Below, in pieces: positions 34,820 through 57,796 of a DNA stretch of 64,000 nucleotides. A model generated the notes under the pieces. That model was not told the DNA's origin. It saw only the letters and a list, made by a program, of their open reading frames with translations, and searched no databases. The DNA comes from Microbotryum violaceum (Eukaryota), in the NCBI GenBank assembly GCA_001244265.2, contig CDLV01000009.1:248001-312000 (forward strand). Direction: 5' to 3'. The translations under genes and the position numbers were made by a program. The first letter of the stretch is position 1. Every line of letters starts with the position of its first letter.

Positions 34820-34822
<3 letters not shown>

Positions 34823-37082: not shown

Positions 37083-37083
<1 letters not shown>

Positions 37084-37113
<30 letters not shown>

Positions 37114-37800
37114 CTCTTCTCTCGTCTTTTTTTTTTTCGCGCGAAACTCGTGTTAGCTCCGGCGCCTCATACATATTGCCCCAATTCCTCTGATTGGCCT
37201 ACGGAAAAATTAGATGGAAGTCGACGGTGATAACACAAACCGCCCGCAAGATGCGAGAAACGCGCCAAGTCCGGTCCACCAATCCGATACTTCGGATTCA
37301 AGTGCCCCGCCAAGCGGTTGCCCCCCCCCCCCCGGGAGATGAATGAGAGAGGGAAGGAGAGAAAGAGAGAGAGAAACGAAAAGAACTAGCTTACTAACGA
37401 CAAGAGGCCCACCCCGCTGCCACTTCCCAACTCGGTCGAGACAAAGACAGGAGAGCGACTGCGCAGCTACCCTGATCCGCGAAGTCCCAAGTCTATGCTC
37501 GGTCACAACAAGACCGGGTGGGGACCCCTCAAAACCCTCTACCTCAGCAGTCCCTGGCCCTCAAAGCCCACTTCTGCCCCCCCCCCCCCCACGGTTGCTC
37601 CCTCCCAGAGACGAATGAAAGGAAGATTGAAGATAGTACAAAAGGAATCGGGAAACGATGGAGGAGTTGTTGGTGGTGGTACATGTGTTGTACAGACGAA
37701 TCCGATCATAGTTGACAGTTGAACCTTCTTCGATCTTTTGACTTCAGCCCCCCCCCCCCTGAGACCGCCATACCTCTCTCCTTGAAGCCCCTTAATTTTT
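37084..37800 (-). mobile_element. 5'-truncated chimeric L1-like 3' fragment with poly(A) tail
   Basis: T-tract from 37084; 37167-37575 resembles the family C 3'UTR (51041-51451); 37590-37797 resembles the family B 3'UTR (43508-43706); joined at a poly-C run. Confidence 0.85.
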
Positions 37801-40782
37801 TAATTTTTTTTTTTTGACTGGGGCTCATAAATTGCTATCCTTCGGGTTGGCTGGGACCGCTACAAAAAGAGCTAAAGGAGGTTATAAAGCAACGACGGCA
37901 AGCAGTTGGGTGAAAGTCAACCCCCTGCGCGCAAAGAGCGCTGCGCAAATCAAAACCCGCCGAGCACCTAACGCGGACTCCAACGGGCGGTGAGTACTGC
38001 TGCCGCTTCACGTCCCAAGAGCGGGAGCAAAGATACTCGAAAACCAGGCAAGAGCGCCTAGAGAAAGAAGGGGGAGAGTATACAGAAAGTCACGACTGGG
38101 GATACGGAGAACCAGGAATACTAAGACAGAGAGGAGGGGAACACACCCGAGGGGCCAAGGTAGGGGTCGAAGCCGGAGGTAGAGGTCCCCAGGGACTAAC
38201 AGACCGCAGCCAAGCCCCAGCTACTCGTCACCCCGACAGCGCCTGATGTCCTCCCTTGGCTGAATCTCGAGTGCTGGCTGTTGAGCCGTCGGGGCCGAGC
38301 GAAAAGCGATCCAATACAACAAAACGAGCCTCGCCTTGACGCGAGGATATTGACCAGAAACGAGCGACCTTCCTTCCCGAGCCATGCCGTAGATCTTGAC
38401 CAACGCGAACGAACGAACCATTCAACGGAATCCAACACACGGCTTAGGAGTAAAAGGAGAAGTGGCTGAAGCGTAGTCAACAACCGAGCAACAGGAACGA
38501 GAAGAGGAAGGGAAGGGAAAAAAGGGGGAAAGGAGAGGGAAAAACTTCACAAAGCCTCCAACGCAAAGATAATCGACCTGGCTTGCCGATCCATCCAAGA
38601 ACTAAAAAACCGCTACTGCGCAAAGTAGAGAGAGAGAGGGAGAGGTGCGCAGCCTTCCACTGCGCAACAAGTTCCAAGACAGTCAGCTTCTAAAAGAGGA
38701 GTCGACCTCCGAAAAAGAAGGGAGGAAAGGAGGGGAGGAAAATGGGAAGGAAGGACTTAACTCGGTCATCACACCTCCCAATCTCGAGCCCCAGGCACAA
38801 AACCCGCTCGAGAGAGAAAATCTCGCTCGAACGCTCTGAGTGCACTGGGGAGCGAGGGAGGGGCCACGACCTTGTCCAGCTCGAACCGCTGATGAACGCG
38901 CCAGCGGAGCAGGTGCAGCCGCTGGAAGCCGATCGCGCAGGCCAGCCGAACCCACATCCATCTCGAGGTCGTTCTCCCACGACCCCACAAAAGGGGAGCC
39001 CCATAGTCAGCTGCTCCGGAGTGAACGTCGACGGATCGACGTCGGTATCCTCGATGCCCAGCTTGTCGAACAGAATGCGAAGCACCCCACCCCAGAAGCT
39101 GGTCGAGTACGCGCACTCGAAGAAGTAGTGCGACACCGTCTCGATGACCGCTGCATCGTTGCCGCAGAACAGACACGTCGGCGAAGAGGCATGACCCTGA
39201 GTATGCTGCCTCTTGCGCGTCGGCGTCACGTCGTACATGAGCCGCCAGTGGGTGTCCTGCTCCACAGCAGACGCAAACCGGTCATGAAGCCATCTCCAGA
39301 AGCGCTTCCTATCGCTCTGAGAAGTCCCATCACGGAAACGCTTGACACGATCCTCCCTCCCTGGGAACCGAACCACGTTCACAAGCCGACGAAGCTTGCG
39401 AATAGTGAACGGTCGGGTGAGCCCAAAGAAGTTGAAGCACCGAGGACGGGGAGCCTCCTTGAGAGGTATCCGAGCAGGTCGCAACGCGGTCTTGGGCAGC
39501 AAGGCTTTCGCCTTGAGCAACTGACCCACGCGCGACCACACGTGCTCGTGCTGTAGGGCGGGTTCCTTAGAGTGCTGCCAGAACCCGCGTCGATGACCAA
39601 CCAGAGCCCAGCCCTTCCCTTCGTCCCTCCAGTACAGGTCCGCGATCTGCGCAAACTTCGCCACTGCGTCCGCATCGTCATATGCGTGCTTGGCACCTTC
39701 AGCATAGAGTGAAGGGAGGCGAGGCGGAAGCGAGAGCAATTCGGGGAGCGTAAGGAGTTCGGACTTGATGGTTGGAACTGTGACCCTGGCCGCTGCAACG
39801 ACTGCCCCCCAGCGCGTCGAGTCGCGATACAGCTTCTCGACCCGAGCCGTGCTGCTGAAGAACCCCCACGGACTGAAATCGCGGGTCGCAGCGACGAGGG
39901 ACCTCCAGCTCTCGCGAGCTAGGGGCGCCCAGATCGCCTCGTTCGAGCCCGCCACAGCATCCCAAAATCGAAGCGCCACCGAATGAACGATGTCGCCGAT
40001 TGAAATCAAGCCCAAGCCACCGTCCTCCCGAGCCTGGAACACGAAATCGCGAGCGACGGTATTTCGCCCTGCTCCTCCCCAAACAAAATCCGTAAGTGCT
40101 GTCTCCGCCGCCTTAATGAACCATTGAGGCGGTATGTCGAAGGACAGCACGTGGAGGACCGTCGAGATGATGTGAGCGTTGGCATAGAAGACCTTCCCAC
40201 TCGGCGAAAGTGTCCGGTCTCCAGCGGCGCGGGTCTTGGCCTTGATCCTGTCAAGAACATGGGTCCAAAACAGTTTCGAGTCACCGTGGCGAAAGAAGGC
40301 ATAGCCGCACCACTTGAAGCTCTCCCCTCCTGCACCGTTGGCAGCGCCGCGCAGTCTCGTCCCGAAGCCAGTTCGGTCCGAGTGGTAGCACCAGCGTCTT
40401 GTCCGTGTTGGTCTTCCCGTTGGTTGCCTCGTACCACGTCTGCGACAGCGTTTCCAGCTTCGACAATGCCGCCGGTGACTCCACTACCACCACAGCATCG
40501 TCGGCAAACGCCAGATGCGTAAGCTGCGCACGCGGCCCCCCTGGCCACACCTTAGTAGAAGTCAATGTGACCGTGCACCAGTCCGCCCGCCATGGCTCCC
40601 AATGTGTGGTAGAACCACCGCCGGTGTGACTTGGGTGCACCGTCATATTGACTTCTACTGTCCCCTTCAATTGATTAAACAACTGAAGCCAACCAACTTA
40701 ATCAATTGTTCAACTCGTGACCGATCTTAGTTTGCCTTGCGGCAGTGACAGACGCTACCAAATTGGAAAACAAAGGAAAGTT

Positions 40783-40854
40783 TGGCTGAACTGAGAATTG
40801 AACTCAGGTCCACTCTATTAATCAGAGTTGCTCTGACCGCTGAGCTACTCAACC
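40783..40854 (-). tRNA. tRNA-like cassette/pseudo-tRNA, copy 1 (apparent anticodon TTA in a non-canonical loop)
   Basis: GGTTGAG TA GCTC AGCGGTCA GAGC A ACTCT GATTAAT AGAGT GGAC CTGAG TTCAATT CTCAG TTCAGCC A folds into a full cloverleaf with A and B boxes; TTTT follows downstream. Confidence 0.75.
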
Positions 40855-41087
40855 AGTAGGAATAGATGAATATGACGGTGCACCCAAGTCACACCGGCGG
40901 TGGTTCTACCACACATTGGGAGCCATGGCGGGCGGACTGGTGCACGGTCACATTGACTTCTACTGTCCCCTTCAATTGATTAAACAACTGAAGCCAACCA
41001 ACTTAATCAATTGTTCAACTCGTGACCGATCTTAGTTTGCCTTGCGGCAGTGACAGACGCTACCAAATTGGAAAACAAAGGAAAGTT

Positions 41088-41159
41088 TGGCTGAACTGAG
41101 AATTGAACTCAGGTCCACTCTATTAATCAGAGTTGCTCTGACCGCTGAGCTACTCAACC
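41088..41159 (-). tRNA. tRNA-like cassette/pseudo-tRNA, copy 2
   Basis: Identical to 40783-40854, offset by 305 bp. Confidence 0.75.
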
Positions 41160-42399
41160 AGTAGGAATAGATGAATATGACGGTGCACCCAAGTCACACC
41201 GGCGGTGGTTCTACCACACATTGGGAGCCATGGCGGGCGGACTGGTGCACGGTCACATTGACTTCTACTACCTTCTGCAGGTCGAGCGCGATCCCGCGCC
41301 GAACGAGGGCGTCGAGGAAGGGCTGGAACGTGATGTTCCAAACCGGGCACGAGAGGGGATCCCCCTGACCGAGACCACACAGCAACCGCACCAACTCCGT
41401 GGGGAACCCATTGATGAGGTAGCGCACCCCAGAGTCTCGGGATCGTACAGAGCGCGCAGCAGGGAAATGAAACGCTCACCAAAGCCAAAGGCCTCGAAGA
41501 CGTCGAAGATCCATGCGTGATCGACCCGATCGTACGCGCTCTGCTGATCCAAGGACAAGAGGGCGCCCTCGGGGAAAACTTCAGTGCCTAGCGACTTGAG
41601 TTTTTCGAGAAGGAGAGTGAGATGACTTCCCGCGTCTGCTGAACGTCTTGATGGCATGAACCCGTGTTGCGCCGGCGGCAAAAGCTCGCCGAGCACCCCA
41701 TTGAGTCGCGCCACCAAGACCTTGCTGAGGACCTTGTAGGTTGTCTCGCGCAGTGTGATCGGTCGATATGCCCCAGTGATTTCAGATTGGCCCCCGGTTT
41801 GTTCTTGGGCAAAAGCCGCACCAGCCCCTCTGCCAAGGACGCCGTCATTTTGCCGCCCTCCCAAATCGAGTTGAACAAGTCCAACAGCTTGGGAGCGAAG
41901 TAGGTCGGCAGCGCCTTGAAAAGCTCATACGGAATGCCCGAAGGCCCCGGTGATCGCCCTGAATCCGTCTTCTTCAACGCCGCTTCGACCTCGGAAAGGT
42001 TGAAGGGCTCGTCAAGCGCCACTCTGGCTTGAAGGGGCAGCCGACGACCGAACGTAGGGTCCGAGCGGTCGTCATCGTAGCATTTCGCCGCGCGAATAGG
42101 GTCGAGCAGGGACCGACGTGGGTTCGTCGGGTCGCCACGAGCTGGGTCCGGCGTGAAGAGCGACTGTGCGTGCCGTGAAGCAATACCCAGCGCCTCCTGC
42201 ATGTCAACGGTCTCGGTGCCATCCACATCCTCCAGCGAGACGATGCTCGTCTGGCGACTCCGGCGGTTGAGACGCGTGCGAATGCTTGCCGATTGACCTT
42301 CCCTCGAGTCGACTGACGGCACATGCGCACGAATGCGCAGCCACTGAGCCTCCTTTACCGCCAACTGATCCAACTGCGACTTGGCGAGAGCATAAGCAA

Positions 42400-43178
42400 T
42401 TTTTTTTTTTTGACTGGGGCTCATAAATTGCAATCCTTCGGGTTGGCTGGGACCGCTACAAAAAGAGCTAAAGGAGGTTATAAAGCAACGACAGCAAGCA
42501 GTTGGGTGAAAGTCAAACCCCTGCGCGCAAACAGCGCTGCGCAGATCAAAGCCCGCCGAGCACCTAACGCGGACTCCAACGGGCGGTGAGTACTGCTGCC
42601 GCTTCACGTCCCAAGAGCGGGAGCAAAGATACTCGAAAACCAGGCAAGAGCGCCTAGAGAAAGAAGGGGGAGAGTATACAGAAAGTCACGACTGGGGATA
42701 CGGAGAACCAGGAATACTAAGACAGAGAGGAGGGGAACACACCCGAGGGGCCAAGGTAGGGGGTCGAAGCCGGAGGTAGAGGTCCCCAGGGACTAACAGG
42801 CCGCAGCCAAGCCCCAGCTACTCGTCACCCCGACAGCGCCTGATGTCCTCCCTTGGCTGAATCTCGAGTGCTGGCTGTTGAGCCGTCGGGGCCGAGAGAA
42901 AAGCGATCCAGTACAACGAAACGAGCCTCGCCTTGACGCGAGGATTTGACCAGAAACGAGCGACCTTCCTTCCCGAGCCATGCCGTAGATCTTGACCAAC
43001 GCGAACGAACGAACCATTCAACGGAATCCAACACACGGCTTAGGAGTAAAAGGAGAAGTGGCTGAAGCGTAGTCAACAACCGAGCAACAGGAACGAGAAG
43101 AGGAAGGGAAGGGAAAAAAGGGGGAAAGGAGAGGGAAAAACTTCACAAAGCCTCCAACGCAAAGACAATCGACCTGGC
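42400..43178 (-). mobile_element. 5'-truncated family A copy (3'UTR only, with poly(A) tail)
   Basis: 42412-43178 is a near-identical direct repeat of 37816-38582, preceded by a T-tract. Confidence 0.95.
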
Positions 43179-43182
43179 GCAA

Positions 43183-43340
43183 TTTTTTTTTTTTTTTGTA
43201 TGAAACTCATCGCTAATTTGCAAGACGAGAAAACCCCCTACGGAACTAAAGGAGATGCTACCCAGCATGCACGATGATGACCACAACCGCCGCTTGATGC
43301 GTTGTAACTAGCAGAACAGACCAACCCGATACATCCGAGT
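43183..43340 (-). mobile_element. Family B 3'-terminal stub (about 143 nt plus poly(A))
   Basis: 43198-43340 is nearly identical to 43350-43492; each copy is preceded by a T-tract. Confidence 0.95.
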
Positions 43341-44725
43341 TTTTTTTTTGTATGAAACTCATCGCTAATTTGCAACACGAGAAAACCCCCTACGGAACTA
43401 AAGGAGATGCTACCCAGCATGCACGATGATGACCACAACCGCCGCTTGATGCGTTGTAACTAGCAGAACAGACCAACCCGATACATCCGAGTTCAAGTCC
43501 CCCCACCCACGGTTGCTCCCTCCCAGAGACGAATGAAAGGAAGGTTGAAGATTATACACAAGGAATCGGGAAAAGATGGATGAGTCGTTGGTGATGGTAC
43601 ATGTGTTGTACAGGCGAATCCGATTATAGTCGTACAGTTGAACCTTCTTCGATCTTTTGACTTCAGCCCCCCCTGAGACCGCCATACTCCTTGAAGCCCC
43701 TTAATTCTTTGAGACGCGTCGAACAAGGCCTCCGATGGCACAAACATCCCGCTCAATCCAAATGATTCACGTGGTCCAAAGGGGGAATGTAACCCCTGCG
43801 ACCGCAGCAATCACATACCCCTTGTACCCGTCTGCGCTGGATCTCCACCGCGGATTCCAAACCCCTTTTCGGTTACCAAAGTCGGCCCCCCTCGCGACCG
43901 CACGACCCCAGATCACCCCCATTCCAATGACTGCAACTGCGAAACAGGCCTACTTCGCACAAAAACACACAATCCAGAGATTTCCGGGGAAAGTCACGGA
44001 GCATGTGACAGTCCATTGGACACGCCTCGGTCGGGTGCAGCGCGGGCGGGTGGCCGTCAACACCGGCGCGCGGCTGGAGACAAGGGCGGGGTATACCTTC
44101 CGCAGGGGCCTCGCTTCCCTGCGGCGTACTCCCAATCTCGGAACGCACACTCGAGTCCCCTTGTACGTGCAGGTGGTTCCCAATCACCGCAGATACTGGG
44201 GAAAGAAGGAGCATGAGGCCCACGACGGTGATGTCATTGGGTGGGACCTCGCTCGAGTGTGGATGTGTATGGCGGTTCGGTACCCGAGTCACCCGCCGCG
44301 GGGCCGCGACTCCGAGCGAGCAGCAAAGCAAGGAGAGGCGAGCCACGCAGGCAGTTTGTGCCGGCCTTGAACAGGAGATCACGGGGTCGCTCGACCGAAA
44401 GAGAAGACAGACCCGGCCCTTGAGAGGAGTGGAAAACTCACGGTATAGTCCAGGAGAGGGCCAAGGGGATACGTTTTCGCTGTGTGTCATCGTGATGTGG
44501 CAGAAGCTCGAACCAAGGGCGACAATGCCCGCCGGCGCAAAGAACCCGAGGCTCCTGGGGAGTACGGAAGCCTATGAGGAGGAATGGTAAAAAGAGCGAG
44601 AGAAAACAGGTTCAGTATTCTGGCGTGTTTGGGAGACATTTTGGAGATTGAGAAGGAGGGAAAAGGGACTTGTGATTTTTTGGGGGTTTGGTTTTTGCTT
44701 GGATAGGGAGGGAGGGACATCTACT

Positions 44726-47700
44726 TCATCGCGCCAATCTGAGCTCCAACCTCTCCTTCAGTCCCGCCATCTCCTTGTCCATGCTCGACATCGCTCTGGC
44801 GTGGCGATGGAGATCCCAGCGTCGGTTGCTGAGAGTGTCGAGCGCCAGCGCAATGAAGGCGCGGATTGGACGCTTTTTCGACGTCGGAAGGCGAGCGCGC
44901 AGTCGAGGGAGGCCGTGCTCGATCTGAAGTGCCGTGTAGTCGAGGTCGAGGATCGACACGACCCCCAGCGCGTCGCAGATAATGGACCTAGCTGCTTGCC
45001 AAAATTGAGAAGAGTCAGGGCAATCATGCCAAAAGTGAGTAAAGTCATCCTCCACCCCTGCCAGGCTGCATGCCTGCACAAGGCAGCAGGCCGAGTCGCC
45101 ATGCCGCTGCACAAACTGGCGCTTCCGCGTTGGCGTGAAGTGGTACGCCAGCTTGAAGTGCACCTCGCGCTCGCGGGCCGTGGCGGGCCCGGTGTGGAAC
45201 CACCCCAGAAGAGTCGCCTTTCTTTGGGTGTGGCGAGTGATCCAGGGCGTTGTGTGTCGTCGAAACGTCGATGGTTGATGACGCGTCGAAGTCGCGCAAT
45301 GGTGTAGGGTCTGTCCAAGCTCAACATTCTCCACTGATTAGCAAGCAAGGGGGCGGAGGGGAGGGGAAGTCTTTGATCAGGCATGCCGACCGGAGTCGCT
45401 CTGGGCAAGATGTGCTCGAGGGGACCGCTGGGCCGGGCTCCAGGTGCTCCAACGACACGAATGACGGGTGGTCGACGTGCGAGGACGGGAACAGGAGGCG
45501 GAAGCGGCGGGATGAAGCGATCGCCTGCGACCTGGATCCACGCCTGGACTTGATCGCGCTTCCATTGCCAAAGGTTGGACAGCTCCGAGCCGTCGCCTTG
45601 GGGATGCTTCTCAGGGGTCCAGGGCACCGTTGGAGCTGCGGGATATTGAGCTCGAGCATAGATGTCAGCGATGGTGCGTTCGAAACTGAAAAGCTTCGCC
45701 AAACGCTTATCCTGCTCCGAGAACGCCCGCGAGTCATGCAGACCCGGTTGGAGGGGGGAAAGAGAAAGAAGATTGGAGACCGAAAGTTTGGCAGGATCGA
45801 CGACGGCAGGGTAGCGTTCAGCGACCGAGAGCACCGCTCGCCAGCGGGGATGTAGCTCCCGGGGTGCGTCGGCGTTCCTCCACGTCCACAGATCCGCAGC
45901 AAAGTCAAAGGTCGGAAGCGCTCGCCGGATGGAACTCCGAGCCAGATCGCCCCAAATCGCAGTTGACCCGCCGGCCAGCACATCCCAGATCCGTACCGAG
46001 ACTGAATCCACCACATCCTGGATGCTCACGACGCTGAGACCGCCTCGCGCCCGTGCCGTGAAGACGACCGATTGCTTGTAGTCGCTGCGCCGCGGGCCTC
46101 CCTTCACAAAGTCAGCAAGCTTGCGCTCGATCGACTTGATCACGTCGGATGGCGGGATGTCGGCGGAGAGAGAGTGCAGCACCTTGGAGATGCCGTAGCG
46201 GTTAAGATAGAAAGCCCGGGTATGGTGCGTCATCCATCGGTCGCGCACCGATAGAATCACTCGATCAACCCTTCGCTCAAGATCATGGAATCCCAGCCTG
46301 TTGTTGCCGTCAGGCGCAAACTGGAGACCGATCCAGGGAAGAGACTCGTCCGGTGCCACGAACGACAGTTTGGACAAGTCCGCGCGATCCCACAACGTCG
46401 CGCCCAATGGCATCACCACAGTTTTGTCGGTGTTTAGACGTCCGTTCGTCGCGAGTCGCCAATCCCGAGCTAACGCCTCGAGCGAAGCAATAGCTTCCGG
46501 CCCAGCAACAGCGACGACGGCGTCATCCGCGAACGCCAAATTGGTGATGCATCGAGTCTGCGGACGATGAGCCAGCTCCGGAAGAGTGATAGTCAGCGCA
46601 ATGTTGCGTCGACTGAGAGAATCAAGGAAGGGTTGGAATACCACATCCCAGACAGAAGAAGAGAGAGGATCGCCCTGGCCAAGACCGCACAGGAGTCGCA
46701 CCGTCTCGGTGAGGAAACCGTTGACAATGTACCGCGCTGTGGACGTCTCGCCGTTGTAGAGCATCCGCAAGACGCGCTGGAAAGGTTCCGGCGCGCCGAG
46801 AGCCTCAAACACCGCAAAGACCCAATCGTGCTCGACCATGTCGTAAGCCGAGCTCTGATCCAGGGAGAGGAGCGCTGCTGTCGGGAACTCTGCCCCACGA
46901 CCCCTAATCTCATCGATCAGGAGCCGCAGATGCAAAGCCGCGTCCGCTGGTCTTCGCCCCTTGACGAACCCATGCTGTCCGGCCGGAAGAACATCGGGAG
47001 GATCCGGTTCAGACGAGCCACGTAGACCTTGGTGAAGATCTTGTAGTCGCATTCCCGCAAGGTGATCGGACGATACGATTTGAGGTCGCACCGCGCTGCA
47101 CCAGGTTTGTTGTGTTTGAACAAGAGGCGCACATTGGCCTGGCTCTGTTGTGGAGTAAGGGAGCCTCGAGTAATCAGCTCGTTGTAGGCTCGAGTCAAGA
47201 GAGGGGCCCAAAGCAGGGGGCAGGCTCGATACATCTCATAGGGGACCCCTGAAGGACCCGGAGATCGACCTTCGTGCGTGGTTCGAATCGCTGCGAGCAC
47301 CTCGGCCTCGCTGATGGGCTCGGCCAGAATGTCGACGTGCGAATTCGAGAAGCGCCGAAGGAAGCGAGCGTCGGAAAGCGGGTCGTCACAAGGTCTTGCT
47401 GATCTGATGGGTCCCAAGAGCTCATCCCGCATCGTCACGACCTGTTCCGGATCCTTCGCTTCGACAAGGTAGTGCTGCTGGAAATGAGAATGGGTGTGCT
47501 CGAGCGTGCGCTCCATGTCAGTGGTGAGCTCGCCATCAGCGAGCCGGATACTCTGAAACTTCACATCCCGGGACCGAGCAGCCAGTTTGGCATGTACCGG
47601 ACGACTGAGACGTTCCTCGGATGCAATCTCGGGCACGTGCGCCCTGATCCGGGACTGCCTTGCTCGCTCGTTCACAAGTTTGGTGAGAGCGTCGTGGGTG

Positions 47701-48764
47701 TTCGTCCAGTCGATAATATCGAAGGGGCTCAGCACCCGACGAGACTCAATGTCCTGCAGTCGAGATACCAGCATCATTTCGAGGGCGTTGCGCTCCCGAA
47801 ACAGACGCCGAGACAGCTCGAGAGCTTGGACCCGAGACTCCGAGAGTACGCGCTGAAGGTCCGCGACCGGATCCCCAGACGGTGCCTGCTCAAGGAGACG
47901 AGTGACGAACTCCTTAAACTCGGCGTGTCTGAAGGTCGACGAGTTGATGCGGGTCAGAAAATGAGCCGCCTGGGGAAGGCAGAGCTCCTCTTCGACCTCG
48001 GCACCACTTGCGCGCAGCCTAAATGTGACCGTAACCGGTCGATGATCCGACATGGATCGAGAGATATTGTACAGAGTAGAAGCAGAAACGACCCGTCGCT
48101 CGTGTCGCCGCTGCACCAGAACAAAGTCGATGCGCGCGCGCGAAATGAGCTGGCCGTCCTTGCTGAGATGTGGGCGCGTGGTCGCCGGCGACAGTGGGTG
48201 CATGAGCCGAATGGCATCCGTGTACGCCCCGTCGAGCCGAGACATAAGCACAGGCCAGTGGTGGGTGTTCGGGCGGTCCACCTGTTGCGCTCGATCCACC
48301 GCGGGAATAGGGCAGTCGTTCAGATCGCCCGCGATGAACCGAATGTGAGAGGAGACGGTCGCCCGAAAGTGAAGGGAGGTGAAGAAGAGGAGGCGCTCGG
48401 CGGGTTGAACCGGAGCGTAGATATTGTTGAGTTCGACGACGTCCGTCGAACCCCGCACATCGAAGGTGGTCACGAGTAAGCGCCCGCCAAGAGACTGACG
48501 CGTGCGACGATGACCACCGAGAAGAGGAGAAGAGCTTGGAATCAAAGTGAGGCAGTGTTGAGAAAAGTAGGCCTCGCCCTGGTGGGACTGGGCGTACTCG
48601 TGGCGTATGTGAGATTGTCGTGCTTTAGGAACATTATGTTCCTGGAGAAGGATAGCAGAAGGGGGAGGTGTGAGCGAAGTGAGATACGAAAGAAGCAGAC
48701 GACGTCGTTCAGGGGTATTGAAGCCCCTGTTGACGTTCCAGGTCATGATGATGAACTCAATCAT
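44726..48764 (-). CDS. Family B ORF2: APE endonuclease + reverse transcriptase + Cys motif (frameshifted as assembled)
   Basis: MTWNVNRG, LLQE, NIYAP, AGDLND, RIDFVL, SDHRPV; SPGPSG, YRPITL, QHGFVKGR, GLGQGDPLS, AFADD; CLVQAC..DDFTHFWHDC. Confidence 0.93.
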
Positions 48765-50743
48765 TACGATCGCGCCTTCGTTGCAGCAGCAGCTCCCTTG
48801 ATGGACAACATAGGTCCGAATGTGGGTGACGGGAGAGGGTCCGCAGCAGTCGATTCGTTCCAGTCCGATGTGCGCGCAACGCTGGTGAGACGCTGGATAC
48901 GCTCGGACCGGCGAAGACCCTGGGAAGTTCCTTCTTCCACCTCCTGCTTGGGCTCGGGCTCGGGATCACACACTGGACCTGGAGACGGCGAAGGCATCCA
49001 ACCGGTCACAGACGGGGTGCGGTCCAACTCGGTGATCTCATCGTACAGACCGGCATCCTGTTTGCGCTCGCGATCCGACACACGATTCATCCAGTCGTCA
49101 GGAAGGCCGTCCATATCAAGCTGATGGTGACTGGCCGATCGGAACCGCGTCAGCTCAGGGGTCGTCGAGACAACCTCAGGCATAGACCCCGTCTCGGCCG
49201 ACTGCGATTCCCCTTCTTCCGCGTCACTCGTCTCCGTGTGTTCCTCCTGGTTCCCCTCCGCTCCGCGGTCCTGCAGATCCGACAGATCCGAAGGCTCCAA
49301 CGGCGGCACCTCCTGCTGTGGTTCCAGCTGTGCCTCGACTACGCTCATCGCGTCCTCGTCGTCCTCGAGAGCCTGAGCGGGCTCCCCCTGCGCCTCTTCG
49401 GCCACGTCGCCGGCCAGACTTGCGAATGGGTTTGCGGCGACGATGAAACCGCAAAGGGCGGATGCTGTGAGTGTAGAGCTTTGTGAACGAGCAGGGTAGA
49501 CTCGTGGTGAGTTGTTAGTGGCCCTTGTGGGAGATGCGTTCTTCTTTGAACGCTTGGACGCGACAGGGGACATTGGGGGAGAGGGAGAGGCTACATCACC
49601 TCTGCGTTGTTTTTGGGGGTCGAGGTTTGCTCGATGCTGCTTTGGGGCTCGGCCTGGGGCCTTTGGTTGTTGTTATTTTTCTGGGCGGCCTGCTGACGCT
49701 GGACCGGCTTTTGAACGCAGTTGTCGGAGTGGCCTACAAAACCGCATCGGCGGCAGGAGGCTTCGGCCTCGTAGTCGTGGCGAAGGGGGTGAGAGTTGCG
49801 AGTCGTCCTCGAAGGTCGATCCTCGTCGGTAGAACCTGTCGAAGTTGAGCACCGTTGTTTTTGAACAGATCGTCGTCGTCGAACTGGACGATGGCCGCGT
49901 AGTTTCCTCGAGCAACGAGATACGAGCCTTGAACGACTGTTAGAGGCTGCTGGAGTTGGAGCAAGTCGCATTTGTGGCCGTCCCCGGTAAGCTTGGCGAC
50001 GACGCCTTGCAGTTTGCTCCAGAGGTCGTCATTCGTGTATTCAGCCTCAGGACTGATGATGAAACGCAGTTCGACGACGTTCTTGACGAACGCCAAGCGC
50101 TTGCGGACTTGGGCAAAGGAGCGTTTCCACTCGATCTTGGTCGCCGCGTCGTGGACTTGGTCGAGCGCCGCTGCGCTAGCGCAGCGCACCACGAACTTGA
50201 ACCGGGTGTTGCCGTTTTGGATGATCGACTCCGGTGCGACTCCATGGATGACTGGAGCGTATTTCTGGAGCTCGGGGGGAGGACAACTCCTGCGGGCAGG
50301 TTAAAACACAACCACGTGTCGGGCGACAGGGTACGGAGCACCTTCGAGTACAACTCGGACTTCTCGCGTTCAGTGGCCACACCGGTGTGTTCGAACGTGA
50401 CTTCAAGAACGGCACCAGACGTGTCGGCGATTGGTTTCGTTGCATTGAGTGCGCTAAAGCGCAGGGAGGTGGCCCGGTCCTTGCCGAAGCCGAGTGCTTC
50501 TTTGAGCACAAGGATGCGGGTGCCCTGGCGTGTGCCATCTTCGACACTGATCATCTTCAGGATCCTCGCGACATCCTCCTTCCTCTTCTTCTCTTCATCA
50601 CGCTTTTCCTGGTACAGCGCTAGGCCGGGATTCCCTGGTCCCTCGGCGGCATCGGCCTCCGCCCCCGCGTCACCACGTGGTTGCCCCGTCGCTGCCGGCT
50701 CCGGAGGGCCGCGGCCCGGATCAGGCGGTGCCTGGTCGGACAT
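48764..50743 (-). CDS. Family B ORF1 (gag-like, zinc knuckle, acidic C-terminus; frameshifted as assembled)
   Basis: ATG 50743 MSDQAPPDPG; ATSLRFSALNA shared with family C; LRHDYEAEASCRRCGFVGHSDNC; stop TAA overlaps the ORF2 ATG. Confidence 0.85.
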
Positions 50744-50813
50744 TGGGTCGATAGCTGATGTAGCGGTTGATGTATTCGATGTATTGACGTTTGCCGAGGT
50801 AGGGTAGTGCGAT

Positions 50814-51008
50814 AAAGATGAAAGATGAAAGATGAAAGATGAAAGATGAAAGATGAAAGATGAAAGATGAAAGATGAAAGATGAAAGATGAAAGATGAAA
50901 GATGAAAGATGAAAGATGAAAGATGAAAGATGAAAGATGAAAGATGAAAGATGAAAGATGAAAGATGAAAGATGGAAGATGAAAGATGGAAGATGAAAGA
51001 TGAAAGAT
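50814..51008. repeat. Microsatellite (AAAGATG)n, about 28 copies, at the 5' end of element B
   Basis: Read directly; two GGAAGAT variant units near the right end. Confidence 0.97.
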
Positions 51009-51478
51009 ATCAAATGTTTTTTTTTTTCTGTAGAAAACGTTCATCATATTGCCCCAGTTCCTGTTCCCCCTGTTTTGGCCTACGGAAAAAAACTAGATGG
51101 AAGACTACGATGATAACACAAACCGCCCGCAAAAGTGCGAGAAACGAGCCAAGTCCACCAATCCGAGATTCGGATTCAAATGCCCTAGCCAAGCGGTTGC
51201 TCCCCCCAGGAGACTAATGAGAGAGAGAAAGAGAGATGAAGAGAAAAAAAGAAAGAAAAGAAATGTACTAACGACAGAAGGCCCACCCCACAGCCACTTC
51301 CCACTCGGTCGAGACGAAGACAAGAGCACGACTGCGCAACCACCACGACCCTCGACGCTCCAAGTCTCTGCTCAGTCACAACAAGACGCGGTGAAGGTCC
51401 CTCAAAACCTCCCCCATCGGCAGTCCCTGGCCCCTCAAAGCCGACTTTCTGCCTGTGTCCGCTGATCCCTCCCTTGAC

Positions 51479-54400
51479 TCAGAACCCCGAAGCCGAAGAG
51501 CGCGAGCCACACCGAGTCGACGCCAAATCGCGAGATGGTCCATGATCCGCAACGGTGAACCTGTAACAAATGAAAGATGAAAGCGATCTATTTAGTGTAC
51601 AGTAGGAGAAAATAATGTCACGAGAATTTGGTGTGTGTGTGTGGTGGTGGTGGGGGGAAAGTCGAACCCAGCCTCTACTGCCCTCTCCTCCCCAAGCTCC
51701 TCCCGCCCTCAGCTTCAACCTCTCCTCCAAGATGATCCTCCTCCTCACAACACCCTCCATCTTCGTCCCCCACTTCTGCATCCCCCACCTCCAGCTGCTG
51801 ATCATCTCCAAGACCAGCCCGGTGAATATTTCGATCGTCCTCCCCGCTCCTTCTTGATCGCGTAGACTGGCCTTGAGCTTCGGAAGTCCGAACATGCGTT
51901 GAACAGCCGTGTAATGCGTGTTGTCGATCGTGTCGAGCCCCAGTGCGTCGCAGAGCACGCTCCTTGCCGCGATCCAAACGTTCCCAGAGTCAACGCAGTC
52001 GAAAAAGTAGTGGTCGGTGTCGTCCACCGGCGCCTCGCAGACGAGGCACGCGGGAGAAGTGTCGTGATTCTGTTGGTGTTGCAGCTTGCGCGTCGGGGTG
52101 AAGCGGAGAATCAGCTTGAACCAAACTTCCCTCTCCCTCGCCGTCAGTGCCTTCGAGTTGACCGCCTTCCAAAAGCTCCTGAGGTCGTCCGGCTGCGGTG
52201 GTCCCTTGAGCCCGAGCGTGTTGGTAAAGGCCTTCGCGTTCAGGACCCGGCGGATGCGACGGATGGTGTACGGTCGAGCCATGTTCAGCAGCTTGTACTG
52301 GCTCGCCTGCTGTGGAAGCACCGGGTCCGGAAGGCGCTGCTCCATTGCGAAGCGGGCCACGGGCTTGGGAGAATCGCCTCGAGCGGTGCGCTGGTGCCGA
52401 TCCGGGGAGGCACGTTGAGCCGTCCTGCCGCCACCGCCACCGCCAAGGGCGTGTTCTTGTGTCGATCGACAGTAAACCGGTACCAGGCCGCGATTGCCAG
52501 TCGCTGCGGGAGCCCGCGTCGATCGTACTCGCTGTTGTCGCCGAGCACATCCGCCGGCGGCGTCCAAAGGTGAAACCCCCCACCCGCATACAACTCGCGC
52601 CGGTAGAGATCCGCCACCTTCGGGTAGCCCTGAAGACGAAGGTAGTCAGGTATATGAACCGCGTCGATGGTCTGTCTCCCTCTGATGGGGGTGTGGAGGC
52701 TGCCGAGCAAGGTGGGAAGCGCGAGCAGGTTCGCGGTGGTCAAGGTCCTCGGGTTGACCTGCGCGTCTTGCTGTTTCGGAACCCCAATGCTGCTCGCCAT
52801 CGGGGATGGAGGTCGCTGGGGATGGGAGTGGATGGATGTGGCCAGAGATCGGTGGCCAGGTCGAGGTCGGACTGAGCTCGCTGGAGTGCCACGCGCGCAA
52901 GTCCTTGCCAGATCGCGCCCGAACCGCCGAGAAGAACGTCCCAGATCCGTGCCGCAACCGCGTCCACGACGTCCTGCATCCTGATCACCCCGAGTCCCCC
53001 TTGAGCTTGGCTGTGAACACGATATCTCTGCCGTAGCTGGTCCTGCCCTTGCCCCACGGACGAAATCGACGAGCATGTCATCGAGCTTCTTGACGACTTC
53101 GGGCGGCGGGATGTCGGCTGCAAGGAAGTGCAGGATCTTGGGGATGGCGTACCGATTGACGTAAAAGGCACGGGTGTGGTGTGTGAGCCAGCGATGCTGA
53201 ACCCCTTCCAGCGTCGCCTCGAGGCGTTCGATGAGATTCGCGTAGGCGAGTTCGGTGTCGCCGCTCGGGTCGAAGGGGAGGCCGATCCACTCGAGCGACT
53301 CGCCTGCGGCCTTGACGACGAGCGGGCGTTGCCCGGGTCCCAGCGGCGTCCGATCGGTAGGACGACCGTCTTGTCCGTGTTGAGCCGGCCATTCGTTGCA
53401 TGCCTCCAGTCGAGCGCCAGGTCATCGAGCAAGTTGAGTGACCCCAAGCCCGCGACGGCGACGACAACGTCATCGGCAAAAGCAAGCGATGTAATGGCGC
53501 GGCTCTGTGGGTACGGATGAAGTGCAGGTATGGAGAGATTCAGCGCGATGTTTCGACGGTGTAGAGCATCCAGAAACGGCTGAAACACGATGTCCCAGAC
53601 CGACGACGACGCCGGGTCCCCTTGGCCGAGCCCACACGTCAGTCGTACCGGCGCCGTCAAGAACCCATTGATGATGTAGCGGGCCGAGGTCGAGTCACCC
53701 GAGTAGAGCATCCTCAGCACGCGAAGAAAGGTGGCAGGAGCGCCCAGAGCGTCAAAGATGGCAAAGATCCAGTCATGCTCGACGAGGTCGTAGGCGGACG
53801 ATTGGTCAAGAGATAAGAGTGCGGCCGCGGGGAACTCGGTCCTGCGCGCGCCAACTTCCTCGATCAGGAGACGAAGGTGTAGTGCAGCGTCAGCCGATCG
53901 GCGGTCCTTGACGAATCCGTGCTGCTGCGGCGGGAGGAGATCCGGTAGAATTTGGTTCAAACGGGCGACATAGACCTTGGTAAAGATCTTGTAATCGCAC
54001 TCGCGCAGGGTGATCGGCCGGTACGCCGAAAGTTCGGCGCGATCAGCATTCTTCTTGTGTCGCTTGAAGATGAGGCGCACGAGTCCTTGGCCCTGCTTGG
54101 GAGAGAGTGAGCCTCGCTCTATCATCGCGTTGTAGGCCTTGGTCAGCACCTTGGCCCACGCCTTGGGTGCGGTCTGGTAGAGTTCGTAGGGCACGCCCGA
54201 CGGTCCCGGCGATCGCCCCGGGTGCGTCGTCCCGATCGCGGCCACGACCTCGTCCTCGGTGATTGGTCGCTGGAGTAAGTCGATCTGCGATTCCGAGAGT
54301 CGGCGCAGAAAGAGAGGATCCGAGCGCGGGTCGTCGCAAGTCCGCGCCGCCCTGATCGGCGCGAGGAATTCGTCCCGAAGTCGGTCGACGCGGTCCGGGT

Positions 54401-55505
54401 CACGAGGCTCGATGCGGTAGAGGCGCTGGATATGCGCCTGCGCGTGGTCAAGAGCGACATCAATGTCATGCGTTAGCTCTCCGTTGCTCAAGCGCAGTGC
54501 TGTGATCTTGGAGTCCGAGTTTCGCGCCGCGAGCTTGGCGTGGACCGGCCGCGACAGTCGTTCCTCGGAGGCGATCTCGGGTACGTGGGCTCGGATCCGG
54601 AGTAGGCGCGCGCGCGCCTCCTCGCCCGCTTGAGTTCCTCGGACGTCCTTGTCCATTCTGCCGTTTCCGCCTCCCCCCATTCCGGTATCGCCTCCAGATC
54701 CTGCACCCTCCCCACCAAATACTCCATCCGTTCCGTCCGCTCCCGATGCAACCTCCTCGCCATCTCCCCACCCCTATCCCTGCACGCCTTCAGAATGACC
54801 TCGAGCTCCCCCACCGGTTCCTCCCCGCTTGCCCCTTCCAACCATCCTTCCATCATCCGCTGGAATTCCACCGTCTTAAAGGTTGTGGTGTTGATTCGAT
54901 GTAGTTGGTTTGATGTGGTAGGTAGGCTGAGCTGTGGAGGGTCGCATCAGGATCGTCTGAGAGAGCCAGCACAATCAAGACCGGTCGGTGATCGGAAAGC
55001 TCCTTGGGATAGTCGTAGATCGTCGAGGCCTGATCGAGTCTTTTTTGGTGTGTCCGTTGCAGGAGAAAGTAGTCAAGCCGGGAGAAGGAGTTGGGTCGCT
55101 TGCGATTGGGATTAGGTCGAGTGAAGGATGGGGTGATGGGGTGTTTGTAGCGGATGCAGTCCGTGTAGGCCGAGTCGAGCTTGCCGATCAGGATTGGCCA
55201 GTGGTGGCCGCGCCGACTTTGGTTCCGCCGATCGACTTCTGGGCGCGGGCAGTCGTTGAGATCACCGCCAAGGAGTCGGAGGTGGGATTTCTGTGTTTTG
55301 TGAAATAAGAGTTTGTCAAAGAATTTCGCTCGTTGCTTTGGGTCAACGGCGCGCGTAAACGTTGTTGATTTCTAGAATTTTGATGTCGCCCCGCAGACGA
55401 AAGGACGTGACGAGGAGCCGGCCGTCGAGTGCCGAGTGGGTGCGCAAGAGCTCGACGTCGATCAGGGGGAGTCAGCCGGAATTAGAGTCAGACAATGTTG
55501 GTTGA
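51479..55505 (-). pseudogene. Family C ORF2 (APE lacking its N-terminus, RT, zinc motif), frameshifted
   Basis: [84 protein letters not shown]. Confidence 0.9.
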
Positions 55506-57632
55506 TCGCCAACCGGCATCGCCGCCGCCGCTGACATCGACCTCGTCACCCTCCGCCCCTCTGTTCCATCCTTGACAACGACGCGGCTCTTCCCTTTGAT
55601 GATCACTCGCTTGGCGTCGGTCGGTTCGTCACTCGGGTCACTGAGGTCCGCCGCAGTCTGCGACCTCTTCATTACCGGCTTTTTGAACTTCGAAGCGGTC
55701 CCCCTGATATTGATGGAACGTATCTCACCGTCCTCATCCCACGTGGCAAAGTTGTGACGCACCAAAGGGGTTTCAGCGTCGAGCCTCCTCTCGATGCTTT
55801 GGTCCCGCTCGAGTCGTGCCTGCTCAACCCAGTTAGCTCTGATCCTGTCCCACTCCTCCCCTCGCGAAGCGACTTGGCAAGAGTTTCGGGTGACAAAGGT
55901 GGGGTTGGTTCGTGGGGTGTCGATTCGCGGGAAGCGGTGGCGGCGGTTGCTGTTGCGTCGCTGTCGTCGTCATTGCCCAGCCTGTTCGTCTCCCCTAAGT
56001 CCGTCGCTTCCGCGTTCTCCGCTTTCGTCGCTCCCCCTGCCTCGTCCACATCGTCCACCTCCGTCGCCACCTCCTCTTCCTCCATCTCCGTCGCCACCTC
56101 CCTTTCCTCCATCTCCGTCGCCACCTTGCCTTCTGTTTCGCCCCTTCCATCCGCCATCACCTCATCCTCATCAATCACCTCTCCATCGGATCCTCCGCAG
56201 TCCTCTAAAACCGACTCGTCCTCGCTCTTAAGTATGATGGCCTCCGTTTTCACGGTCGCCTCTGATTCCATCTCCGAGTCCTCCGAGTCCTCGTCATCCG
56301 CCTTATCACCAGCGTCCTCCTCCCCGATTCCTCTGGCCCCTGTCCGCTCTGGCCAGTTACCGCTTCCTCCTGTCCCTCCTCAACCTCGAGCCCGGCGAAG
56401 CGATTCTGTGATGCGATCCTGTTAACAACCGGCACAGGAATGGGGGCCTCGGCCTCCGCAATGTTGGTGTCGTTGGTGATGGTGTTCTTGTTGGCGTTGG
56501 TGTTGCCGTTGCCGTTGCCGTTGTGAGCCTCCTTTCGCTTGCTCTCCTGATCCAGTCCGCAGGTTCCCACGTGACCAACGAAGTGGCACCTACCGCAAGC
56601 CGCCTCCTTCTCATAGTCATGGCGAAGGGCGGTGACCGGGATGCCTCGAGTGGGAAGGCCGATTCTCGAAGGTAGGATCTCTTTCAAGGTCGTGTTAGGG
56701 CGTTTGAACAGGGAGTCGTCATCGAAGTGTAGGAAAGCTGAGTAGTCTCCGGCAACGTGGGCAAAGGCCGAGGCGTTGTCCACGCTGATAATGCGCAGAA
56801 CCTGCACAAGTTGGCACGAATGTCCCTTGCCTGACAAGTCCTGCACTAGTAATTGGAACGATTTGATGATGGCATCCATGGAAGGCACTCCTTGAACACC
56901 GACGTTGATTCGAAGCTCGACCATGTTATGGTGGAACCTGTGAGATTTCGCGAAGCGGGCCTTCGCCGATCGCCAAGTGAGAGCAGGGGGCGTCGTAAGC
57001 GCAGCGTCACGTGCCTCGCCGGTGACGAACCCAACCGTAACGCGATGGTGAGCCGCCCCATTACGCAGGATTGATGAATGTTGTACGCCTAGGATCTGTG
57101 GTCGATAGGCTGCAAGGTGGTCCGGCAGAGGAACTCCAGGCTCAAAGCAGATAGGAGAGATCGGCGATAACAGCCTCGTGACGCAGGCCACGAGATCGGT
57201 CTTGTCGGCATGAGACGCTCGCGAGGCGCTTTGGTGAGACAGAGTCACTTCAAGGGCGTAATCAAAGATGTTCTCGACAGACCGGTTCGCGTTCAAGGCC
57301 GAGAATTTCAGCGATGTGGCGGTGGCGACGGGGTAGAGTTCGGCGAAGTAGATGGCCTGGACCCAACGATCCATGCGGTTTCCGGGTACAGCACCCATGG
57401 CTTGTAGGAGGCTGCCCAAAGCCTTGGCACGCTGTTGTTGTTGTTGCTGTTGTTCAGGTGACTGAGTCGCCTGACTCGCAGCGGCGGCATAGTTGGGTGC
57501 GGCGGTGGCGGGGCCCGTGACTTGGGTCTTCTTCGAGCTTATCGGGATCTGGTCGCCGGGTGGCTGGACGCTGGTGGCGGACACCGGTGGTGGCGGTGCC
57601 GGCGGTGGGGACCCAGGGTCTCCTGTAGACAT
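55472..57632 (-). CDS. Family C ORF1 (gag-like, zinc knuckle, acidic region; frameshifted as assembled)
   Basis: [45 protein letters not shown]; colinear with family B ORF1. Confidence 0.88.
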
Positions 57633-57688
57633 CTTGTCGGTGTATCACTTGTTAACTCGAGTATCGAAGACTGCGGTAGGGCGATTTC

Positions 57689-57729
57689 GAAGTGAAGTGA
57701 AGTGAAGTGAAGTGAAGTGAAGTGAAGTG
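57689..57729. repeat. Microsatellite (GAAGT)8 at the 5' end of element C
   Basis: Read directly; followed by a T-tract at 57732-57744. Confidence 0.97.
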
Positions 57730-57796
57730 GATTTTTTTTTTTTTCCGTTTTAGCTATATAACGGGCCTTGTGGCCACCAATTTCACAGATTGCATG

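Follow-up and report, generated by a model that had tools for sequence, protein, structure and literature searches.

The 64-kb window of Microbotryum violaceum DNA analyzed here (contig CDLV01000009.1, positions 248,001 to 312,000) contains a polarized array of putative L1-like non-LTR retrotransposons that extends at least from 34218 to 57744 (~23 kb) and ends shortly before a tRNA-Glu gene. We favor, with about even confidence, an origin by separate target-primed insertions of several L1-like families at one hotspot, with a T-tract that was regenerated, growth towards tRNA-Glu, and a position defined by the tRNA gene. The original prediction, made from the sequence alone, had described a polarized head-to-tail array of three families, and in this it was right; the start that it gave was wrong, and the template jumping that it proposed is not borne out by the junctions.

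Pfam domains found in the array were Exo_endo_phos, RVT_1, and zf-RVT. In unit B, Exo_endo_phos (E = 2.4e-6) lies upstream of RVT_1, and RVT_1 was also found in units A and C. Residues 9 to 566 of human L1 ORF2p align colinearly with the N-terminal half of B ORF2 (E = 1.7e-13), and the 19 best of 99 matches in a protein search were all Microbotryum transposable element ORFs. The reverse transcriptase (RT) core alone had similar PDB matches to Bombyx R2 (3.8e-8) and human L1 (1.4e-5). A Pfam search of ORF1 returned no domain at E ≤ 1; the CX2CX4HX4C motif reported below comes from a regular expression only. Four of the six units are cut at different internal points, tails range from T10 to T15, and no terminal repeats were found. 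Judged by domain order, tails, truncation, and lack of LTRs, the units are predicted to be APE-type, L1-like non-LTR retrotransposons, and L1-clade elements in Microbotryum are mentioned in PMC3956500, which cites Hood 2005.

Self-BLASTN and Pfam searches placed these APE/RT/zf-RVT elements head to tail in a common minus orientation, as had been proposed, and at five junctions the incoming unit opens with a T-tract on the plus strand (T12, T12, T15, T10, and T11). By self-BLASTN, none of the missing 5′ parts of truncated units resumes anywhere in the window, and the only fragments of families A, B, and C in the window are members of this same array. The division into three families also stood, with B and C 66% identical over 1.8 kb and A having only short stretches in common with both, as did the TT microhomology at the two breaks with a recognizable parent sequence (37797 and 43339). 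A/T homopolymers of at least 8 nt number just 10 in the window, which has a GC content of 58%; six mark the array junctions or end, all of them T on the plus strand, a single nested DNA transposon accounts for three, and the last is the terminator of the tRNA gene.

The oldest recognizable unit, a C-like 3′-UTR fragment at 34218 to 34414, has the minus-strand orientation of the rest of the array. It has 83% BLASTN identity to 37204 to 37319 and 77% to C (51095 to 51250), with local alignment scores of 176 to 180 against a maximum of 52 in 30 shuffles. A CT-rich tract at 34095 to 34210 precedes it. Between 34415 and 34679 (minus strand), T-rich tracts and short sequences weakly resembling the C and B 3′ termini were read by eye; with local alignment scores of 37 to 43, inside the shuffle range, further very short stubs here are at most possible. 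The first large unit follows in two parts on the minus strand. Its 3′ end (34680 to 34715) consists of a T-rich tract (~34680 to 34689), G6, a C-like terminus, and the left copy of CATATT, and its remainder (37172 to 37801) is 5′-truncated at ccccttaatt. This unit is C-like to 37578 (79% to C), then B-like from 37581 to 37801 (89% to B 43499 to 43710), and it may represent a family of its own or a recombination product of the B and C types.

The original prediction began the array at 37084, to the right of this 3′ end, with a "chimeric stub" whose poly(A) tail was taken to be the T30 at 37084 to 37113. That tract instead belongs to a nested DNA transposon of 2456 bp (34716 to 37171) that is not part of the retrotransposon array. 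The transposon has 25-nt terminal inverted repeats starting TATGAGGCGCCG (23/25 identical), subterminal A41 (34779 to 34819) and T30/T11 (37084 to 37137), and a 6-bp target-site duplication, CATATT, at 34710 to 34715 and 37172 to 37177; a Pfam search of its four ORFs at E ≤ 1 gave no transposase domain. Its removal in silico, by joining 34640 to 34715 with 37171 to 37600 and aligning the product to C 51028 to 51453, restored a C-like 3′ end that is colinear with C from the very terminus. A 718-bp foldback element with target-site duplication CCT is likewise nested inside the RT of unit A (40553 to 41270). Its inverted ends match perfectly over 97 nt, and it contains 2.1 copies of a 305-bp unit and two identical tRNA-like genes on the minus strand (40782 to 40855 and 41087 to 41160). 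In silico excision restored DLQKVWPGG, as in homologue P0023. The claim that the array has no nested remainders thus holds for retrotransposons but not for these two DNA elements.

To the right of the first large unit, all remaining units are again on the minus strand. Unit A (37804 to 42399; T12 tail) is 5′-truncated inside ORF2, at a point corresponding to residue ~262 in a homologue of 1184 aa; it has 84 to 97% TBLASTN identity to homologues P0023 and P0015, Pfam matches to RVT_1 and zf-RVT, at least five frame changes, and a nonparental terminal AA. A 3′ fragment of A (42400 to 43182; T12, 767 nt, and GCAA) is 98.3% identical to 37802 to 38582, with 13 differences in 767 positions. A stub of B (43183 to 43339; T15 and 142 nt), truncated at ccgag(tt), is 99.4% identical to B 43340 to 43493, with 1 difference in 142. 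Unit B (43340 to 51016; T10 tail) is full length and has 84% TBLASTN identity to homologue P0012. Its ORF2, with APE, RT, and C-terminal region, starts at ATG 48764 and has two frame changes; its ORF1 (ATG 50743) is broken and has one CX2CX4HX4C knuckle, and its 5′ UTR carries (GATGAAA)x27.9. Unit C (51017 to 57731; T11 tail), also full length (81% to homologue P0001 in the protein search), has at least four frame changes in ORF2, a 460-aa ORF1 (ATG 57632) with one CX2CX4HX4C knuckle, and a 5′ UTR that carries (GAAGT)x8.2. A plus-strand T13 tract (57732 to 57744) lies between the 5′ end of C and unique DNA, where it abuts CCGTTTTAGC.

The array might instead be an assembly artifact or the product of DNA-level rearrangement, such as unequal crossing-over or tandem duplication between T-tracts. 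Tandem Repeats Finder does read the B stub plus the 3′ end of B as a 152-nt tandem duplication in 2.0 copies, and the foldback in A has 100% identical repeats, a pattern that assemblers can create. However, the units belong to different families, their junctions are unique, and the duplicated parts differ (13/767 positions). Moreover, the left edge of each unit is its exact 3′ terminus, directly behind a T-tract, and the other edges fall at differing internal points, a pattern not predicted by recombination. We therefore give this account very little credence, the least of those considered.

The junctions themselves record how at least part of the array was assembled. Read from left to right, the sequence before successive T-tracts is ccttAAtt (parental, first unit), T6, AA, T12 (unit A), agcAA, T12 (A 3′ fragment), GCAA, and T15. 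At the first of these junctions, TTAA-T6-AA-T12 (37792 to 37815), the AA that the first unit shares with its parent precedes a further AA plus T-tract, where the B parent reads ccccttaattc. An abortive event that added only poly(A) could account for this arrangement, as could a target-site duplication; alternatively, the second AA could be slippage. The A 3′ fragment is bounded on both sides by GCAA plus a T-tract (42396 to 42411 and 43179 to 43197). The GC of the left copy is A's own coding sequence, part of an Ala codon conserved in homologues. Parental A lacks the right-hand GCAA at the corresponding point, and 4 nt would agree at precisely this place by chance in ~1 of 256 cases. The target-site duplication at the A fragment therefore includes bases of the preceding copy, and the fragment is an independent insertion with its own duplication, not a jump junction. 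The chain of duplications, AA and then GCAA, shows separate target-primed insertions in the order first unit, A, and A 3′ fragment, and given this order the array grew towards the tRNA gene. Duplications order only these three consecutive events, and the last three junctions have duplications of T alone and carry no order information; we infer that the B stub, B, and C followed in that sequence.

These duplications bear directly on template jumping, in which the array would have arisen in one or a few events as RT, on reaching the end of one RNA, continued on the poly(A) tail of the next. The capacity to jump between templates is established for R2 and L1-type enzymes. Same-family neighbors (A and its fragment, the B stub and B) would fit RNAs held in one particle, three junctions have only T between units, and template switching is described for Zorro3 in Saccharomyces cerevisiae (PMC7175516). 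The GCAA+T(n) on both sides of the A fragment, with its nonparental right copy, and the AA chain are instead target-site duplications of separate events. The units are also unlike one another in decay and nested insertions, the junction T-tracts are short (10 to 15 nt), and three of the jumps would need internal RNA start positions. Serial jumping between RNAs, the first mechanism put forward in the original prediction, is in our view very unlikely.

The second mechanism put forward there, repeated insertion at one fixed site, is supported by the right-hand end of the array. The flank CCGTTTTAGC occurs once in the window and is never duplicated inside the array, the T13 that abuts it resembles a regenerated target, and 52 nt separate the site from the tRNA gene downstream. 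Under separate target-primed insertion, an element endonuclease would nick the plus strand at the 3′ boundary of an oligo(T) run, T(n)|CCG, and the T-tract would prime on the poly(A) tail of the RNA, with the cDNA often 5′-truncated. Second-strand cleavage ~14 to 16 nt upstream would leave a duplicate of the T-tract between the new element and the tRNA gene, in some cases together with a few bases from the older element. Each event would regenerate the same target at the same distance from the neighboring gene, and the next copy would enter in the same orientation with its tail against the 5′ end of the previous one. The small degenerate 3′ fragments on the left would then be oldest, followed by A, the A fragment, the B stub, B, and C, and the T13 at 57732 to 57744 would be both the right-hand target-site duplication and the next priming site.

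A divergence gradient along the array, suggested in the original prediction as a check, was found in part. The leftmost units are the shortest and most diverged (77 to 83%), and the nested DNA elements sit in two left or middle units, with B and C free of them and full length. Frame changes are not monotonic (A, at least 5; B, 2; C, at least 4), and C, supposedly the youngest, is more broken than B; we discarded these counts as an age gradient. The source RNAs may already have been defective. The divergence of the A pair (13/767) does not differ significantly from that of the B pair (1/142). RIP-like mutation was likewise rejected as a clock between the A copies, whose differences (7 transitions, 4 transversions, and 2 indels) have no clear signature.

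The gene next to the array, which was absent from the original prediction, is tRNA-Glu(UUC) at 57797 to 57868 on the plus strand (ARAGORN; Rfam RF00005, 46.5 bits versus a gathering score of 29). It is followed by a T9 terminator (57870 to 57878, plus strand, from the homopolymer listing). The T13 ends at 57744 (−53), which leaves a 52-nt spacer (57745 to 57796) with a TATA-like tatataa at 57755 to 57761 (−42 to −36 of the tRNA). With the units on the minus strand and the tRNA on the plus strand, the element 5′ ends face the 5′ end of tRNA-Glu. A point placed at random would have a chance of ~2e-4, a figure calculated post hoc, of lying 39 to 64 nt upstream, in this orientation, of the single true tRNA gene in the 64-kb window. 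Since the nick would lie 52 nt upstream of the tRNA gene and the 5′ ends face it, the gene may define the hotspot, a directing role that we infer from one locus only. The determinant might be the Pol III-bound gene or a chromatin or replication state that the gene creates. The two tRNA-like genes inside A attracted no insertion.

This geometry resembles that of TRE5 (TRE5-A/DRE) and NLTR-B of dictyostelid amoebae, which are non-LTR elements of APE-RT-zinc finger layout that carry an oligo(A) tail. According to passages in PMC5911963 and PMC3159450, TRE5 lands 44 to 54 bp upstream of tRNA genes, is transcribed in the opposite direction, and points its 5′ end at the tRNA; the nick site here, at this one locus, would be at −52/−53 in the same orientation. 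In both cases ORF1 has no recognizable Pfam domain (PMC5006619 for TRE5). In contrast to TRE5, the host here is a basidiomycete fungus with 58% GC, the association with tRNA genes was seen at one locus, the target is a regenerated T-run, and several families are stacked into a 23-kb array; the literature searched yielded no description of TRE5 arrays or stacks at one tRNA gene. The possibility that a Microbotryum L1-like lineage independently evolved TRE5-like, Pol III-directed integration ~50 bp upstream of tRNA genes, with the 5′ end towards the gene and several families stacking at one tRNA safe haven through the regenerated oligo(T), is a tentative one whose chances we put slightly below even.

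The same serial insertion might also have followed from an oligo(T)/poly(A) preference alone, as a self-reinforcing trap with the tRNA gene as a bystander, for example if T-runs in a GC-rich genome lie mostly in intergenic or Pol III promoter regions. The comparison with Zorro3 of Candida albicans (L1 superfamily) made in the original prediction is apt here. Zorro3 integrates into poly(A) tracts and has poly(A) on both flanks, with zinc knuckles in ORF1 and EN-RT-C-terminal domains in ORF2 (PMC7175516, PMC3956500). Units B (T10/T11) and C (T11/T13) are similarly T-flanked on both sides, and this fungal element also has a knuckle-bearing ORF1, although B and C have one CX2CX4HX4C knuckle each and Zorro3 has two. 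A preference of the Zorro3 type for oligo(A/T) (PMC7175516) would build the same array, and T/A runs of at least 8 nt are so rare (10 in 64 kb) that any founding T-run would be a strong attractor. However, the −52 distance and orientation, so close to those of TRE5 and NLTR-B, would then require a coincidence of ~1e-3 or less, and all three ordered events used the tract nearest the tRNA though older internal T10 to T15 tracts were available. The T30/A41 of the transposon and the T9 terminator of the tRNA are unoccupied, but these may postdate element activity. No chromosomal-region or tRNA preference and no multifamily polarized stacks were reported for Zorro3 in the literature searched. We regard a tRNA gene that is only a bystander as possible, though less likely than not.

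Other known arrays differ from this one in composition and setting. In Zepp-like L1 elements of Chlorella, Coccomyxa, and Chlamydomonas, new copies target old ones to form tandem arrays in which 3′ ends predominate, since copies are 5′-truncated as they insert (PMC8226300, citing Higashiyama 1997; PMC3446292). The present array is likewise tandem, made up mostly of 5′-truncated copies, and built by insertion at existing copies, with the junction details of Zepp known to us second-hand. However, a Zepp cluster holds a single family, is found once on each chromosome, and occupies a telomere or putative centromere, whereas this array combines several families, sits beside a tRNA gene in a gene-rich arm, and has two full-length copies. 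HeT-A/TART of Drosophila and Cnl1 of Cryptococcus also form head-to-tail polarized non-LTR arrays, but those are terminal, and Cnl1 is described as CRE-type (PMC7175516). This telomeric comparison, drawn in the original prediction, does not carry over. The array is flanked by 34 kb and 6 kb of gene-bearing DNA with ordinary genes on both sides, and a search for telomere repeats gave 0 matches in the 64-kb window; a telomeric or centromeric array was rejected for the window. Given the ordinary genes in its flanks, the setting is a safe haven rather than a transposable element island.

If the proximity to the tRNA gene is incidental, the array would be a fungal counterpart of Zorro3 or Zepp behavior, of modest interest. 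The table of tRNA-targeted non-LTR elements in a 2018 review (PMC5911963) gives dictyostelid examples only, and no fungal tRNA-targeted non-LTR retrotransposon was found in the literature searched; if the TRE5-like reading is true, this would be the first such element outside the dictyostelids. A tRNA link that held genome-wide would mean that retroelements came to target tRNA genes a third time independently, after yeast Ty and amoebal TREs, and for the first time with a non-LTR element in fungi, and it would strengthen the idea that compact genomes push mobile elements to Pol III safe havens. The junctions are an unusually readable record of a self-regenerating target building a polarized, time-ordered stack, with bases of each older copy carried into the next target-site duplication. 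Transposable element dynamics in Microbotryum have already been studied for mating-type chromosome evolution (PMC10502011), and stacks of this kind could be read as a local "fossil column" that records family activity within the genus.

The head-to-tail array of L1-like (APE-type) non-LTR retrotransposons originally predicted at 37084 to 57744 is real, but its boundaries were wrong; on our map, it spans at least 23.5 kb (34218 to 57744). Self-blastn mostly reproduced the predicted units, placing A at 37804 to 42399, an A 3′ fragment at 42400 to 43182 (98.3% identical to 37802 to 38582), a B stub at 43183 to 43339 (99.4% identical to B at 43340 to 43493), and full-length B (43340 to 51016; ORF1 ATG at 50743, ORF2 ATG at 48764) and C (51017 to 57731; ORF1 ATG at 57632), all on the minus strand. 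As had also been claimed, the truncated units did not resume anywhere else in the window by self-blastn. A/T homopolymers of at least 8 nt number only ten in the whole 64-kb window (~58% GC), so that the tracts at the five unit junctions (T12, T12, T15, T10, and T11) are far from a chance feature; the others are the T13 that closes the array, three tracts (A41, T30, and T11) within one nested transposon, and the T9 that terminates a tRNA gene. The 5′ UTRs of B and C end in microsatellites—(GATGAAA)x27.9 and (GAAGT)x8.2, respectively—which are mutually unrelated and lie, read on the plus strand, at the extreme 5′ ends (50814 to 51008 and 57689 to 57729). These could reflect 5′-end slippage during cDNA completion or could be promoter repeats.

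L1-clade elements have been reported in Microbotryum (PMC3956500, citing Hood 2005). The 677-aa reverse transcriptase (RT) frame of C matched 99 proteins (E ≤ 0.001; 7,999 candidates scored), the best 19 of which were all transposable element-like ORFs of Microbotryum silenes-dioicae, M. intermedium, and M. saponariae, with identities up to 81 to 87%. Ranking below these were other Microbotryomycetes and algal proteins automatically named "Transposon TX1" (~32%). These matches assign the window to an anther-smut fungus of the genus Microbotryum or a near relation. By Pfam, B encodes Exo_endo_phos and then RVT_1, A and C each encode RVT_1 together with zf-RVT, and every one of these domains is read from the minus strand. 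Residues 9 to 566 of human LINE-1 ORF2p were colinear with the N-terminal half of B ORF2 (E = 1.7e-13). The RT core alone matched human L1 and Bombyx R2 to a similar degree. By self-blastn, B and C shared 66% identity across 1.8 kb, and A had only short stretches in common with either. In tblastn with 12 of the 99 matched proteins, each unit had a different closest homologue—P0023 and P0015 for A (84 to 97%), P0012 for B (84%), and P0001 for C (81%)—and all three units were broken, with at least five frame changes in A, two in B, and at least four in C.

The T30 at 37084, originally taken as the start of a unit, instead lies in a nested DNA element; as a poly(A) tail it is ruled out by the enclosing inverted-repeat element at 34716 to 37171. 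The inverted repeats of this element start TATGAGGCGCCG (25-nt terminal copies matching at 23 of 25 positions), its subterminal tracts are A41 and T30/T11, and CATATT (6 bp) stands on both flanks. Joining 34640 to 34715 with 37171 to 37600 in silico gave a sequence colinear with the C 3′ end from the very terminus of C. Given the terminal repeats, the flanking CATATT, and the colinearity restored by excision, 34716 to 37171 is a 2,456-bp DNA transposon inserted in the 3′ end of the leftmost substantial unit (the first unit), whose real T-rich tract is at ~34680 to 34689. No recognizable transposase was found in it, and four of its small ORFs had no Pfam domain at E ≤ 1. A 6-bp target duplication is unusual among common DNA transposon superfamilies. 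Further left, a C-like 3′-UTR fragment (34218 to 34414, minus strand; 83% and 77% by self-blastn) gave local alignment scores of 176 to 180, against at most 52 across 30 shuffles; the 265 nt between it and the first unit held T-rich tracts and short termini-like sequences that did not exceed shuffled controls.

A second nested element, a 718-bp foldback (40553 to 41270) with a 3-bp CCT duplication, lies within the RT of A, and its in silico removal restored DLQKVWPGG, as in P0023. Thus, of the claim that the array lacks nested remainders, the absence of nested retrotransposons stands, but two DNA elements are nested in it. The foldback carries two 100% identical tRNA-like genes (40782 to 40855 and 41087 to 41160, minus strand; Rfam, 49.9 bits) with anticodon UUA preceded by A in place of U and with T4 14 to 17 nt downstream. 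The foldback might represent a Pol III-type module carried by a DNA element; an assembly effect could also account for its perfect repeats. The 3′ UTR of the first unit has C-runs of 12 to 15 nt (37320 to 37334, 37577 to 37589, and 37749 to 37760), which are shorter in B and C. The truncation point of the B stub (43493 to 43499) and the point where the B-like part of the first unit begins (37579 to 37581) are at most 6 nt apart in B coordinates and fall on a run of C (G in the RNA), which may be an RT pause site or recombination hotspot. A 3′-UTR module with the hairpin AAUCCGA...UCGGAUU is conserved in B, C, the first unit, and the leftmost fragment (43395 to 43505, 51080 to 51205, 37197 to 37325, and 34238 to 34368, respectively, minus strand). 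One hairpin pair is changed on both sides in B, as are 4 of 24 predicted pairs overall; across these four sequences, the hairpin is a possible structure for recognition by the RT.

When a minus-strand copy is made by target-primed reverse transcription, synthesis is primed by a plus-strand T-tract paired with the poly(A) tail. What is duplicated is the target sequence upstream of the nick, with the T-tract as its end, and this sequence recurs beyond the 5′ end of the new copy. The junction observed at each step has this expected pattern. The first unit ends in parental ccccttAAtt (ccccttaattc in the B parent), followed by T6, AA, and T12; A ends in ...gcataagc AA T12; and the A fragment ends in ...cctggc GCAA T15. 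An AA dinucleotide that begins as part of the first unit itself can be followed across three successive junctions. The "agc" of A is the Ala codon of a ...DAYALAKSQ motif conserved in three homologues, and the GCAA beyond the A fragment is missing from parental A, which reads cctggc|ttgccg. A 16-nt duplication (GCAA+T12) thus flanks the A fragment, and since part of the left copy belongs to A itself, the fragment inserted after A, in a separate event on the 5′ side of A. Template jumping between RNAs, as originally proposed, accounts for neither the GCAA duplication nor the different decay states of the units. Duplication at the DNA level could produce the B stub (a 152-nt tandem repeat according to TRF), but the multifamily structure is beyond it. 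Serial independent insertion is very probably the correct reading.

Insertion order is not readable from the junctions of the B stub, B, and C, where the duplications consist of T only. The sequence CCGTTTTAGC on the right flank is found a single time in the window and is absent within the array, which fits nicks that all fell precisely at T(n)|CC. This unduplicated flank supports the alternative original proposal of repeated insertion at one fixed site. The junctions that can be ordered indicate that the array grew towards a tRNA gene at its right end. Three weaker observations agree with this direction: the shortest and most diverged units lie at the left, the nested DNA elements are confined to the left and middle units, and divergence, suggested earlier as a check, is higher in the A pair (13/767) than in the B pair (1/142). 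The last difference did not reach significance, however, and C carries more damage than B.

This gene, tRNA-Glu(UUC) at 57797 to 57868 on the plus strand, was called by ARAGORN and Rfam (46.5 bits versus a gathering score of 29) and is followed by a T9 terminator. The C 5′ end (57731) is followed by T13 (57732 to 57744), 52 nt of unique sequence with tatataa at −42 to −36, and the tRNA gene, placing the T13 edge at −52/−53; the elements are transcribed in the opposite direction, with their 5′ ends facing the gene. To the right of the gene, 58460 to 58746 could represent a MITE or a hairpin element. The dictyostelid element NLTR-B inserts 39 to 64 bp from tRNA genes (PMC5911963). By our own post hoc arithmetic, a random point in the window would fall in this 26-nt band with that orientation with a chance of ~2e-4, the array having been singled out independently of the tRNA gene. 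We give even weight to site choice being set by the tRNA gene. A serious rival, tenable if somewhat doubtful, is that only T-tracts are targeted and the tRNA gene is coincidental. Zorro3, a Candida albicans L1-superfamily element with a zinc-knuckle ORF1, integrates at poly(A) tracts and afterwards has poly(A) on either side (PMC7175516); such a preference would by itself build this stack. B and C are likewise flanked by T-tracts on both sides, and each has one ORF1 knuckle (CX2CX4HX4C). A single locus cannot separate the two modes of targeting.

The array is flanked by ordinary genes (ADH_N, UBX/thioredoxin-like, LAA2, and PSP domains), and no telomere repeats were found within the window. 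M. lychnidis-dioicae is reported to have 134 tRNA genes and 392 LINE copies, the latter making up 0.93% of the assembly, and the excerpted text of that study mentions no link between the two (PMC4469406); the word "tRNA" has zero occurrences in PMC10502011. Our search of article texts found no description of LINE arrays, polarized or adjacent to tRNA genes, in any fungus, Microbotryum included. The tRNA-targeting non-LTR elements tabulated in a review are solely from dictyostelids (PMC5911963). A precedent for arrays of 5′-truncated L1 copies built on existing copies is Zepp of green algae, which targets its own earlier insertions (PMC8226300, citing Higashiyama 1997; PMC3446292). In Microbotryum, the array very probably formed by serial insertion at one T-tract that each event regenerates, advancing towards the tRNA gene.
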